Sequence record: MZ417521
DNA: 64,000 nt
Strand: one strand, 5' to 3'
DNA from: Escherichia phage 132
Shown piece after piece: positions 31,762-35,435 of the stretch. The notes beneath the pieces are model-generated. The model saw nothing but the letters and a program-made list of their open reading frames with translations. It made no database searches and was not told the origin of the DNA. The position numbers and the translations under genes were made by a program. Position 1 is the stretch's first letter, and the number at the start of each line of letters is the position of its first letter.

Positions 31762-33002
<1,241 letters not shown>

Positions 33003-33006
<4 letters not shown>

Positions 33007-33491
33007 TTTAATTTCCTGCATTCAGTGATAAAGTTATTTAAATTTTGAGCATATTTCTTTTCATCAAAAATCTTTTGTTGTCTGCGTAGCCGCCATGGCA
33101 TTTCAATGAACGTGTACCATATCCCAGATAATATTGCTGCTGTAAAAATATTAACAAGTATGGTTAAAAGAATCCAATCTCCTATTCTGTCCATTGGATT
33201 TTTTATAAAAAAGTAAAATACGAATGATGTCACAGGAAGACTAATAATATACCACAGAATCATAATTTTATCTGTGAACCAATCAGCGTTCGTTAACTTA
33301 GCGCGACTATTATAAATACACACGAATTTATCATCTGTTGCAGTAGATGGCTTAACTGGTTGATATCCCATTCTAAACTCCCTAATCAGCAAATTTTTCA
33401 TATCTTCGGAACAGCCATTCCAGTCAACTCTATCAACTGAAATGCCATCATCCCCATCATCTAAATCATACCAGCGAGTTTTTAAAATCAT
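33003..33491 (-). CDS. Two-TM membrane protein (member of a tandem family)
   Basis: 162 aa; two hydrophobic helices then basic segment; C-terminus ...ITECRKLK. Confidence 0.55.
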
Positions 33492-33850
33492 TTAATTTTC
33501 CTACAATCACTCACAAACTCTTCCATTGATTCTTTTTCAATATAAGACATGTAGCTATTATATTCTTTTAATTGTATTTTGTAATCTTTTTTTCTTTGCC
33601 AATTTATTTTAAAATTATCATAATGAAAATATAACATGGTACCAAAGAATGAAAACAATGAAATAATTTTGGTATAGTGAAGTTCACTCCAAACTTCTAT
33701 TATATTTACTGTGCCGTCAATGTTTAAAATAAGACAGTCAATTAACAATCCAAAAAGACTACCCGCAAGAGCTGCAGCCAACGCCACAGCAAAAATTAAA
33801 AATAACTCAGGAAGCGAATATTTGACTTTATTTAGTTTTGGCTTTTGCAT
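33488..33850 (-). CDS. Two-TM membrane protein (tandem family)
   Basis: 120 aa; C-terminus ...VSDCRKIK; ATGA coupling. Confidence 0.55.
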   Translation of the reverse strand: MQKPKLNKVKYSLPELFLIFAVALAAALAGSLFGLLIDCLILNIDGTVNIIEVWSELHYTKIISLFSFFGTMLYFHYDNFKINWQRKKDYKIQLKEYNSYMSYIEKESMEEFVSDCRKIK

Positions 33851-34224
33851 CGTGATTCCTTAACAAATTTCATAATTTCGTTAAATTCATGCATATCAAG
33901 TTTAAGCTGGTGTTCCTTTTTAATCTTTTTACACTGAGCTTTCCATTCACGTACGCGTTTACGATAATGTCTTCCTTGATACCAGTATCCTACCCAATTT
34001 ACAGGTACTAATAAAAGCGGAATTATTAATGGAAGAATTAGCGTTGCTCCAAATATTACACCGGATTCAATATCAGTCATAAAGTCTATAACCATTCCAA
34101 CAATCAATAGAATTACAAATGATATAGCTGTCACAGGACCTATTAATACATCAGTAGGAATTAGCTGACGCTTTAGTTCATACTTCACAGGTTCACTTGG
34201 AAGGTATAGTGATGGCTTTGACAT
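33832..34224 (-). CDS. Two-TM membrane protein (tandem family)
   Basis: Start at internal ATG (MSKPSLYL...); C-terminus ...KESRCKSQN. Confidence 0.5.
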   Translation of the reverse strand: MSKPSLYLPSEPVKYELKRQLIPTDVLIGPVTAISFVILLIVGMVIDFMTDIESGVIFGATLILPLIIPLLLVPVNWVGYWYQGRHYRKRVREWKAQCKKIKKEHQLKLDMHEFNEIMKFVKESRCKSQN

Positions 34225-34801
34225 ATTCTCTACATTCCTTAACAAATTTTTCTAATAATAAATCGCTTTCAAAATTAGGATTTTCTACGAATTTATCAAA
34301 AAGATCATCAACAATAGTTAAGATATTCTTTTTACTAAGAATACGTTTATTTTCATGCTTTGTTTCAGAATCAACTATAAGAGTAAAGAAATATTTCTTT
34401 CCCTGAAATTTTACCGTAGTATCAATATAAAATAAATTTGACTTTTGTAAATTACGTTTAAACCATGCGTCACTTAAACTATAAACGCCAAGATAATCAT
34501 AATCGTCGTTTAAATAACAAACCGTCCATTCAGGAGAAATGAAATCAGTAAATTCAACATCAAAATCACATGTCAATGAATGAATTGATTCAATACTGTT
34601 AATAAGTATTCCAGGACGTATTAAGGACTTTTTACCTCTATAAAATCTTCCAGAAAGACTTTCGTCAGTTTCATACGAAGACCCCCAATAGTAATTACGC
34701 CCTTCTGCCATACGTTTAAGAGCATTTAGTAATTGGTCTGGAACATCAACATGTCTTTGGAACTCTTCAAACATTGAATTGAAATCATTTTGCATTCTCA
34801 T
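34193..34801 (-). CDS. Hypothetical 202-aa protein
   Basis: ORF track; C-terminus ...FVKECREYV encodes the SD for the next gene. Confidence 0.55.
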   Translation of the reverse strand: MRMQNDFNSMFEEFQRHVDVPDQLLNALKRMAEGRNYYWGSSYETDESLSGRFYRGKKSLIRPGILINSIESIHSLTCDFDVEFTDFISPEWTVCYLNDDYDYLGVYSLSDAWFKRNLQKSNLFYIDTTVKFQGKKYFFTLIVDSETKHENKRILSKKNILTIVDDLFDKFVENPNFESDLLLEKFVKECREYVKAITIPSK

Positions 34802-34819
34802 TCCTATTTACTCCAGTAA

Positions 34820-34837
34820 TAGGGGCCGAAGCCCCCT
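34820..34837 (-). terminator. Stable hairpin (weak terminator) after gene 34842..35435
   Basis: GGGGC-UUCG-GCCCC hairpin; downstream tract only moderately U-rich. Confidence 0.3.
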
Positions 34838-34841
34838 ATCA

Positions 34842-35435
34842 TTATTTCAGAGAATTAATGTATTCCTGAACATCGGCAGAGGTGGTTTCAACCCCAGAAA
34901 TATTGCCATTAAAGGTTTCAACTCGAGCAAGAGTATCTTCAATATCAACCTTAGTCAGTGCTGCAATTTCAACTACATCATCAGCAGTACTAATTCCAAG
35001 GGCATTCGCGGCGCGAGTTTCACGGATATATTCCAATTTAACTGCAAGTTCTTGGCGAGCATCATCTAACTCAACTACTTTCTTGGCGATTTCAATTCGC
35101 ATTTCAGCATAACCATCAGCTTTAGTAGTCAACTGCTCAGCTGTTCGACGATATAGTAAACCAAGTTTAGCATGCATTGTTACATCTTGACCTTCCGAAA
35201 GGAGCTTGCGAATTTCACGCTCTTTTGATTCGGCCTGCTTATTCTTTTCGACAATAAGTTCACGAATACGCTTTTCTTCATTAATAGATTTAACAGAAGC
35301 AGTTTTTAGATCTTTAATTTTATCAAGCAATTTTGCTGCTGCGGCAGTATACTGCTCTTCAACAGATAGATTTTTAGCCATAGCAGAACCAAGTTTAGTG
35401 CGAATAAACTCAACAATTTTCTTCAGTGTGTTCAT
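34842..35435 (-). CDS. Coiled-coil protein (Ala/Lys/Glu-rich)
   Basis: 197 aa; long heptad-like helical sequence; early promoter upstream. Confidence 0.55.

Follow-up and report, generated by a model that had tools for sequence, protein, structure and literature searches.

Why should four consecutive genes of a T4-like phage, encoding one soluble and three small membrane proteins, end in nearly the same few residues, at a place where the ribosome-binding site (RBS) of the next gene also lies? The question is raised by genes e.5, e.4, e.3 and e.2 of Escherichia phage 132, which lie head to tail between e.6 and nudE in the 64,000-nucleotide (nt) stretch of sequence record MZ417521 analyzed here (the window, whose positions are used throughout); gene names were taken from the annotations of phages RB51 and T4. 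The 3-kb stretch around this gene run shares 96-97% identity with Escherichia phages FT, RB51, and RB68, and 641 phage records, nearly all of them T4-like, match the same stretch; by its sequence, the phage is a T4-like Tequatrovirus. On balance, we consider it probable that the shared tail is a protein-level motif of the e.5-to-e.2 block, that the Shine-Dalgarno (SD) sequence of each following gene was fitted into it by codon choice, and that the junctions act as microhomology for recombination. The genes themselves were already known; what look to be new are the tail motif that they have in common and the part it plays as a recombination joint that preserves the frame, and no description of the tail motif or of the junction events was found in the literature searched.

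The tails of e.2 (with FITECR), e.3 (ending EFVSDCRKIK), and e.5 (ending KFVKECREYVKAITIPSK) fit the pattern F-[IV]-x-x-C-[RK], and that of e.4, which ends KFVKESRCKSQN, holds the variant FVKESRC (Table 1). Across the 107 open reading frames (ORFs; 19,917 amino acids [aa]) of the window, the strict motif F[IV]..C[RK] occurs three times, always in the tail of e.2, e.3, or e.5, against an expectation of 0.17 matches overall and 0.023 in C-terminal windows (Poisson P about 2e-6). At the DNA level, the degenerate pattern TTYRTNNNNGANTGYAGR was matched 3 times versus 0.11 expected. An earlier reading made from the letters of this DNA alone (the sequence-only reading) had described a similar C-terminal motif in four consecutive genes; the likeness exceeds chance within the window, with the strict form in three tails only and a variant in e.4.

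For comparison, we assembled 34 viral loci anchored on e.6 (identity from 99% down to 54%), the annotated regions of mogra (Mosigvirus), Klebsiella phage 15882-6 (Jiaodavirus), P896 (Gaprivervirus), Yersinia P8, and T4, and further loci from CC31-like Enterobacter phages and EcS1; below, L0xx labels denote comparative loci and P0xxx labels denote homologue proteins. Plus-strand ORFs downstream of e.6 in the roughly 40 loci were clustered, cluster profiles were compared by hhalign, and the motif sequences collapsed to 48 groups, 47 of which entered the counts of SD position. The motif was found in at least seven T-even-like lineages, namely Tequatrovirus, Mosigvirus, Jiaodavirus, Gaprivervirus, the JS10/VR5 group, CC31-like Enterobacter phages, and EcS1. 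Every member carried it in 11 of the 13 clusters of proteins with two transmembrane (TM) segments, and the two exceptions fall just outside the counting pattern (the e.4 cluster, with FVKESRC, and one cluster ending AFLKEIRK). The soluble e.5 family carries it in every lineage, as FVKECREY, FIMECREY, FIAECREY, FIKHCRE, FIKYCRE, FINLCRD, FVKMCRT, FVDQCRA, or FINYCRG, and it also ends at least two other soluble families, with tails such as ...AFIKQCRRNQNVS and ...LFIAKCRAK. Neighboring families free of it include nudE, lysozyme, and a family of small soluble proteins ending G-W-V-S-S-S-x-x-C. The extended consensus reads [ED]-hydrophobic-E-x-F-[IV]-K-E-C-R-K.

One alternative is that these tails mainly translate an RBS and coupling cassette, consisting of an AU-rich stretch, SD, spacer, and ATGA, that would be conserved so that the downstream gene is expressed; the protein likeness would then be incidental. 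The SD does overlap the motif in 32 of 47 groups, and in 33 of 47 the following ATG is placed -1 to +10 nt after it. Two registers are used. In one, codons 3 and 4 of the motif read AAGGA(G) and the ATG follows 1-5 nt beyond it; in the other, the SD is formed by the Arg codon and the next base (AGG-A or AGA-GG), with the ATG 7-10 nt beyond. Residues K-E, K-G, or E-E at positions 3 and 4 spell AAGGA or GAGGA, and Arg is written with the otherwise rarer AGG/AGA when the start is close (AGR codons in 20 of 29 cases with a start within 12 nt and in 3 of 12 with the start farther away; Fisher p = 0.016). Ends of the e.4 lineage (FIKEVR, FVKEIR, FVKESR) keep AAGGAG or AAGGAA, yet lose or shift the Cys, which speaks for this alternative.

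The codons of the conserved residues speak against it. F is written TTT 28 and TTC 16 times in the 48 groups, I as ATT (23), ATC (8), or ATA (5), C as TGT (22) or TGC (12), and R with six codons, including AGA (17.5), CGT (9), AGG (5.7), and CGA (4); these counts are the informative part of the comparison because the four columns had been chosen by the search pattern. Third positions held 0.31-0.72 bits of information versus 0.84-2.0 at positions 1 and 2. In the groups without overlap, a distance of 14-31 nt or more separates the motif from the SD downstream of it, no SD is found in the motif codons, and F-[IV]-x-x-C-R is intact. Tails of the e.5 family with the SD 20-31 nt beyond (Gapriver/Dhaka-like, CC31-like, EcS1, and L022-, L027-, and L031-type loci) keep the motif in codons such as TTCATTAACTACTGCCGT, which hold neither an SD nor a purine run, and the motif likewise persists before gaps of 28 nt (LFIAKCRAK, Klebsiella phage) and 186 nt (GFIRMCRKNRLQHQTSVL, CC31-like loci). 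An SD would account for 4-6 nt of these ends and not for a protein pattern of 18-30 nt. We therefore regard such a cassette as an unlikely main source of the motif. The sequence-only reading had taken the motif to be at least partly a by-product of a coupling cassette, which fits the K-E and K-G codons and the choice of AGR and does not fit the motif as such, with its free codons and its persistence beside a distant SD. The codon comparison shows what behaves as a protein-level element, open to free synonymous change and present in several unrelated protein families of one region.

The DNA of the four window junctions falls into two pairs. The e.3-to-e.2 junction (TGTAGGAAAATTAAATGA) and the e.2-to-nudE junction (TGCAGGAAATTAAAATGA) are ATGA overlaps with AGGAAA 6-7 nt upstream; the e.5-to-e.4 (AAATTTGTTAAGGAATGTAGAGAATATG) and e.4-to-e.3 (AAATTTGTTAAGGAATCACGATG) junctions are overlaps of 32 and 19 nt, respectively, with AAGGA upstream. 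A cassette of downstream SD and start codon, in or directly after the motif, is accordingly present as had been claimed, and its proposed consensus, GAATGYAGGAAA...ATGA, holds at only two of the four junctions. When the 3' ends of all 107 window ORFs were aligned locally with one another (5,671 pairs), the e.2/e.3 and e.5/e.4 pairs ranked in the top 0.2%, and the other four junction pairs were individually unremarkable (2.5-28%). The mean of the quartet exceeded that of 20,000 out of 20,000 random quartets and was the best of all consecutive quartets. The junctions are thus more alike than other gene ends of the window; the earlier reading had named likeness at the level of random AT-rich sequence as the outcome that would speak against it, and this outcome was not observed.

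A conserved site in the RNA could also produce similar junctions, for example, an operator for a translational repressor such as RegA, a phage protein that binds AU-rich sequences around start codons, or a structure controlling coupling. Around the ATG, the junctions are rich in A and U (e.g., AGGAAAAUUAAAUGA) and may resemble known RegA targets, and two of them are less structured than their shuffles (at least as good a fold was obtained for 194 and 190 of the 200 shuffles), which would fit open, single-stranded sites. Against this, no significant RNA structure was detected at any of the four junctions (z = +1.6, -0.1, -1.1, and +1.4), and the nucleotides of the motif diverge between lineages while the peptide is conserved, so that we hold an RNA-level site to be very improbable. 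Because the junction RNAs are unstructured, the SDs are unmasked, which argues against coupling of the unmasking type and not against termination-reinitiation.

Translationally coupled stop/start overlaps of the ATGA type, with the SD inside the upstream gene, are common in T4 and other phages. The ATGA overlaps on either side of e.2 and the two longer overlaps upstream of it, with the SD inside the upstream ORF, resemble these in arrangement. Ordinary coupling, however, predicts neither the same peptide on successive, partly unrelated proteins nor conservation of that peptide when the SD moves out of it, and the SDs of the e-genes are not sequestered in structure.

The proteins that carry the tail differ in their bodies. 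Hydropathy analysis revealed two TM segments in e.2 (residues 78-96 and 106-129), e.3 (about 15-41 and a weaker one at 60-77), and e.4 (25-46 and 55-78), followed in all three by a stretch rich in K and R, and zero TM segments in e.5. In e.3 and e.4, K and R together number 4 in the N-terminus and 10-15 in the C-terminus and are absent from the loop, a distribution that fits a hairpin with both termini inside. In an AlphaFold2 model of e.3 (14-sequence alignment; mean predicted local distance difference test [pLDDT] score, 73), helices span residues 13-44 and 50-119, the second TM segment continues directly into a long tail helix, and the tail has the highest pLDDT (84-87); a single-sequence model of e.5 was unusable (pLDDT 38.5). 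One shared layout for three proteins, as the sequence-only reading had it, agrees with hydropathy, charge, and model as far as the two TM segments, the basic stretch, and a helical tail are concerned.

That reading had also spoken of a tandem family, and here the three proteins part. Pairwise BLASTP among e.2, e.3, and e.4 was weak (E 0.006-0.1). After truncation just before the motif, the profiles of e.3 and e.4 matched over 91 colinear columns (probability 80%, E 1.4e-5; full length, 95.6% and E 1.3e-8), compared with E of at least 0.1 for control comparisons with two unrelated two-TM clusters. A MAFFT alignment ran colinearly from end to end with 14 invariant columns, sharing M.KP..L..KY, NW, F, and C. 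By these comparisons, e.3 and e.4 are true paralogues beyond the motif. For e.2, trimmed profiles gave E 0.048 against e.3 and 0.091 against e.4, and full-length significance was limited to 18 columns of the tail (88.8%, E 2.5e-6); e.2 is not demonstrably a paralogue of the other two, with which it has in common the topology, the motif, and one 10-mer. This 10-mer, TCCTGTGACA, lies in frame in the first TM segment of both e.4 and e.2 and occurs twice in the 64 kb versus 0.06 copies expected. Members of the e.5 family are homologous across genera (hhalign probability, 78-95%), with bodies alignable only distantly.

Database searches placed the four proteins in families of their own: e.5 in phrog_2607 (2.6e-109), e.4 in phrog_2604 (1.5e-69), e.3 in phrog_2330 (8.9e-60), and e.2 in phrog_2203 (2.7e-78), PHROGs entries all listed as "unknown function." The precomputed Pfam label was PF26873 for e.4 (99 homologues) and PF26896 for e.2 (51 homologues), and scans of e.2 to e.6 against Pfam, NCBIfam, and PADLOC returned zero significant families. 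A HMMER profile of e.3 plus e.4 run against 1.84 billion representatives found 8 matches, all of them e.3/e.4 variants, and no distant relatives; judged by this search, the e.3/e.4 family is confined to T-even-like phages.

The e.4 tail has features of its own. BLASTP had hinted that e.4 carries two copies of the motif (an internal REWKAQCKKIK and the terminal FVKESRC) from an old gene fusion; this idea was dropped, since profile comparison and MAFFT place the whole e.4 tail colinear with that of e.3, with short insertions only. The e.4 lineage (loci include L004:2495-2854 and L005:2495-2854) keeps an internal E-W-[KE]-x-x-C (e.4 residues 91-102; window 33919-33954, minus strand) as EWKAQCKK, EWKVQCAK, EWEQKCVS, or EWKEQCKN, in which the spacing of W and C equals that of F and C in the canonical motif. 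The terminal motif of the same lineage has the Cys lost or shifted (FVKESRC, FVKEIRC, FIKEVRNGTA, and FIKEVRRK).

The suggestion of the sequence-only reading that repeated junctions could serve as recombination points is borne out by hybrid junctions in Tequatroviruses without e.2 and in Dhaka/Gapriver-like phages without an e.4-like gene. At locus L008, which lacks e.2, the e.3 tail reads GAGTTTGTGATTGATTG joined to CAGGAAATTAAAATGAAAACA, the left part as in the e.3-to-e.2 junction and the right part as in the e.2-to-nudE junction; the changeover falls within TGCAGGAAA and yields an intact hybrid tail, FVIDCRKLK. This contiguous junction of e.3 and nudE is found in 43 of the 60 best-matching phage records listed, including RB32, RB33, PP01, PST, and UFV-AREG1. 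At an identity of at least 60%, e.2 was detected in 447 records and e.3 and e.4 in 498 each, and e.2 is absent from about 50 Tequatrovirus records (about 10% of genomes). Among Dhaka/Gapriver-like phages, the e.4-like gene is present in L013, L019, and L021 and absent in L016, L018, and L020. In the latter three, the e.5 tail switches to the sequence of the e.4 tail and e.3 start inside GGTTCnnAATG; because the switch falls within SD, spacer, and ATG, the e.4-like gene would have been removed exactly from start codon to start codon. These natural variants show what appears to be gene loss from junction to junction.

Within the window, the tails of e.4 and e.5 share a 16/16-nt identity, AAATTTGTTAAGGAAT, which is not shared with the tail of the paralogue e.3, and the N-termini that overlap them, ATGTCAAAGCC and ATGCAAAAGCC, are also alike (MSKPSL and MQKPKL). 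From this identity we infer that duplication may have proceeded by reciprocal crossover between tail motifs. The same observations, which a duplication spanning the junction would be expected to leave, can be read differently: the tails could be a residue of common descent, copied together with the RBS by duplication and gene conversion and without function as a motif. The paralogy of e.3 and e.4 and the tail exchange seen in the hybrid junctions are in keeping with such a residue. It is difficult to reconcile, however, with the retention of F-[IV]-x-x-C-[RK] at loci where e.6 is only 54-65% identical and where nearby tail and synonymous sites have diverged, or with the motif of the e.5 family, kept in all genera despite a body that aligns only distantly. 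We judge a functionless residue to be quite unlikely.

The mechanism we favor, with a protein-level motif at its center, can be put as follows. Genes e.3 and e.4 would be duplicated two-TM hairpins with both ends in the cytoplasm, e.2 would be the same kind of hairpin and tail behind an added N-terminal domain, and e.5 would be an unrelated soluble protein. Because the genes are packed without spacers, the downstream SD has been fitted into the motif by codon choice, either with K-E or K-G as AAGGA or with Arg AGG/AGA followed by G or A. This leaves strings of 9-16 nt that are nearly identical at successive junctions and probably provide the microhomology for unequal recombination, by which whole genes would be lost from start codon to start codon with frame, tail motif, and RBS intact. 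The region also illustrates how the choice of codons can accommodate an SD within a protein motif, which is of use in annotation and in the recoding or refactoring of phage genomes.

Several points weigh against this explanation. The motif groups are not phylogenetically independent, and F, I, C, and R were used to find them, so that the codon argument rests on synonymous diversity and not on a formal dN/dS. The amphipathic tail of the sequence-only reading received weak support, with a helical-moment shuffle p of 0.02 for e.2 and of 0.18-0.26 for the other three tails, in which amphipathicity is not significant. Translational coupling is suggested by the overlaps, at SDs that are not masked by structure. 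Whether the indels are deletions or insertions was judged from homologues of e.2 elsewhere, which lie near nudE in JS10/VR5-like loci and in a different place in the Mosigvirus locus L012. The junction lacking e.2 may be a single inherited event and not a recurrent one, and no recent tandem duplicate was seen among the clustered ORFs of the loci.

As to what the motif does, its tails appear cytoplasmic and helical, with a hydrophobic stripe of F, I, and C that includes the conserved Cys, and they sit on one soluble and several membrane proteins that are probably co-transcribed. For these reasons, the motif is most likely a candidate cytoplasmic docking or oligomerization helix that would tie e.5 and the hairpins together or to one shared partner. 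A more specific proposal, which we put forward tentatively and consider doubtful, is that the tail is an assembly tag: the helices of e.5 and of the two-TM hairpins would zip, with the Cys at the core, into a membrane-anchored complex, and the homology of motif and RBS would let hairpin subunits be added, dropped, or fused in frame, giving self-shuffling subunits for host interaction (exclusion or counter-defense). A genome-wide knock-down in T4 scored e.2 to e.8 and nudE as "Not Fit," that is, without a fitness effect, and listed their function as unknown (PMC11879866, supplement). Nothing on the function of e.2 to e.6 beyond such genome-wide tables was found in the literature searched. A peptide motif that unrelated proteins of a single gene block have in common would offer a handle on e.2 to e.6, which have gone without an assigned function for decades.

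T4 has other small early inner-membrane proteins, Imm, Sp, RI, and RIII, which act in exclusion or lysis control. Like them, e.2 to e.4 are small accessory membrane proteins of T-even phages, dispensable in the laboratory and variable between isolates, and we infer early expression for the e-genes from the promoters annotated in the T4 record L13089. None of Imm, Sp, RI, and RIII is known to carry this tail motif.

The closest described mechanism to the e.5-to-nudE junctions, by analogy, is the modular shuffling that promoter-early stem-loop (PeSL) cassettes mediate in the hyperplastic regions of T4-type phages, where one mapped crossover lay in the stretch that separates the SD from the -10 box (Arbiol et al. 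2010, PMC2839356; Comeau et al. 2014, PMC4122927). In both cases, copies of a short conserved expression cassette are interspersed with small nonessential genes in a hyperplastic region of the T4 type, each copy ends at its 3' side in the SD and start codon belonging to the gene that follows, and crossovers between neighboring copies delete or exchange genes (here at L008 and at L016, L018, and L020). The e-gene junctions differ in having neither a strong sigma-70-like promoter nor a stem-loop, the only stem-loop lying between e.6 and e.5. Their repeat is part of a coding sequence, falling within the final 6-10 codons of the gene upstream, where it is conserved as a peptide; the homology is just 9-16 nt; and the products stay in frame, the upstream protein keeping a hybrid but intact tail. 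The PeSL papers (PMC2839356 and PMC4122927) do not mention e.2 or e.3, though their phage PST has the junction lacking e.2. The junction data would extend the PeSL idea, in that a coding tail plus RBS of 9-16 nt can act as an in-frame recombination joint in T-even phages, and such a joint would explain the presence/absence polymorphism of e.2.

Table 1. Features of the e.6-to-nudE region in the window, in order of transcription, with the tail motifs and the shared 10-mer
Feature	Position	Strand	Remarks
e.6 (msp3)	34842..35435	minus	Conserved 197-aa helical protein, precedes e.5; anchor for comparative loci
GC-rich stem-loop (GGGGGCTTCGGCCCC)	34819..34839		Between e.6 and e.5; fold -17.5 kcal/mol; upstream boundary of the overlapping run
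e.5 (T4 msp4)	34193..34801	minus	202 aa, soluble; tail ...EKFVKECREYVKAITIPSK before the stop; final 32 nt overlap e.4
e.5 tail motif FVKECR (TTTGTTAAGGAATGTAGA)	34229..34246	minus	Contains AAGGA; e.4 ATG (34224-34222) 4 nt past the motif
e.4 (msp5)	33832..34224	minus	130 aa, predicted two-TM hairpin; tail ...MKFVKESRCKSQN before the stop; final 19 nt overlap e.3
10-mer TCCTGTGACA (..PVT.., TM1 of e.4)	34129..34138	minus	In-frame 10-mer shared with e.2
e.4 tail motif FVKESRC (TTTGTTAAGGAATCACGATGC)	33847..33867	minus	AAGGA is the SD; e.3 ATG (33850-33848) formed from the Arg and Cys codons CGA and TGC
e.3 (msp6)	33488..33850	minus	120 aa, predicted two-TM hairpin; tail ...MEEFVSDCRKIK before the stop; ATGA overlap with e.2
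e.3 tail motif FVSDCR (TTTGTGAGTGATTGTAGG)	33500..33517	minus	Arg AGG and next AAA form the SD AGGAAA for e.2; ATG 33491-33489
e.2 (msp7)	33003..33491	minus	162 aa: 77-aa N-terminal domain, predicted two-TM hairpin, and tail; ATGA overlap with nudE
10-mer TCCTGTGACA (..PVT.., TM1 of e.2)	33228..33237	minus	Partner of the e.4 copy
e.2 tail motif FITECR (TTTATCACTGAATGCAGG)	33015..33032	minus	AGGAAA is the SD for nudE; ATG 33006-33004
nudE (e.1), Nudix hydrolase	32566..33006	minus	Final gene of the overlapping run; tail motif absent

The start of e.4 in Table 1 is the ATG used in RB51 and T4. Genes e.5, e.4, e.3, e.2, and nudE form a head-to-tail overlapping run without a strong promoter or terminator inside. 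Since the genes overlap and lack such signals between them, e.5 to e.2 are probably co-transcribed. The sole strong sigma-70-like site of our scan (35506-35478; 11/12, with TG) lies just upstream of e.6; between e.5 and nudE, no promoter-like matches were located at gene junctions, and the best (10/12) fell inside gene bodies. Promoter-like matches in total numbered 26 versus 18 ± 4 in shuffles, barely above expectation. The older T4 record L13089, in which the genes are named msp4 to msp8, annotates promoters only before msp1 to msp3 and a "stem_loop, putative" after msp3 (e.6). In the window, this stem-loop is a perfect hairpin, GGGGGC-TTCG-GCCCC, without a T-run on the coding strand, for which reason it may be an attenuator or RNA-stability element and not a terminator.

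The anchor protein e.6 is 54-99% identical over all loci and looks all-helical and coiled-coil-like, a pattern that may resemble that of proteins of the PspA/ESCRT-III type. The best match of its profile to PDB sequences had an E of 0.14, and no Pfam or NCBIfam family matched it.

A second tandem family occupies the same region in relatives of the phage. It consists of 3-5 consecutive soluble genes of 65-110 aa that end G-(G)-W-V-S-S-S-x-x-C directly before the stop, with the variants F-W-F-N-S-S-M-S-C and I-W-Y-P-S-S-C, and it was found at L003:3231-4025, L005:3191-4459, L013:7862-9112, and most Mosig/Dhaka/Gapriver/Karam-like loci; it is present neither in the window nor in T4. It resembles the e.5-to-e.2 block in being a tandem array of small genes, here paralogues, in the e.6-to-e region, and in having an extreme C-terminus that is conserved and contains a Cys. 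Unlike that block, it carries another motif, and its genes are mostly separated by 8-9-nt spacers or overlap by 1 nt, so that the tail cannot hold the SD of the next gene.

Other rearrangements in the region, none of them at a gene junction, attest to the plasticity of the block. In phages UFV05 and UFV09, an in-frame chimera of 106 aa, e.4(1-32)::e.2(86-162) (L043:1201-1521), replaces e.4, e.3, and e.2; the joint is TCCTGTGACA, and the crossover lies in the first TM segment. Chimeric e.4::e.2 proteins are therefore a separate kind of event from the junction losses. Protein P0195 (69 aa) is e.4 minus both TM helices, in frame (DVLIG joined to VREWKAQCKK), with the N-terminus and the whole cytoplasmic tail kept. 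The loss of e.3 in the Mosigvirus-like contig L012 (L012:7541-7761) was considered as a junction event and rejected, as it is an internal out-of-frame deletion after which only the first codons and some 30 codons at the end remain, together with the RBS for the gene that follows. In T4 itself (L041; NC_000866, 67652-67960), e.2 is frameshifted to 102 aa with a gap of 161 nt before nudE, and T4T annotates e.2a and e.2b; on this sequence, the reference phage T4 is one that lacks an intact e.2 hairpin.

The e.3 homologues P0037, P0041 (phage LH2), and P0045 are at most 97 aa long and end in ...NWQRKKGLQNTIKRI. In these short homologues, a one-base slip in the A7 run of e.3 (...CAAAGAAAAAAAGATTAC..., window 33583-33597, minus strand) removes the entire tail with the motif; the slip could be a real polymorphism or a sequencing error. 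P0144 (97 aa), in which the N-terminus of e.4 (31 aa) is fused to a helix-turn-helix-type domain (PF08279), comes from a metagenome contig of 703 bp and is probably an assembly chimera. Homologues of e.3 and e.4 appear in public records as "sulfurtransferase," "DNA primase," "host specificity protein," and "head outer capsid protein," labels that, on small membrane proteins, are evidently propagated mis-annotations.

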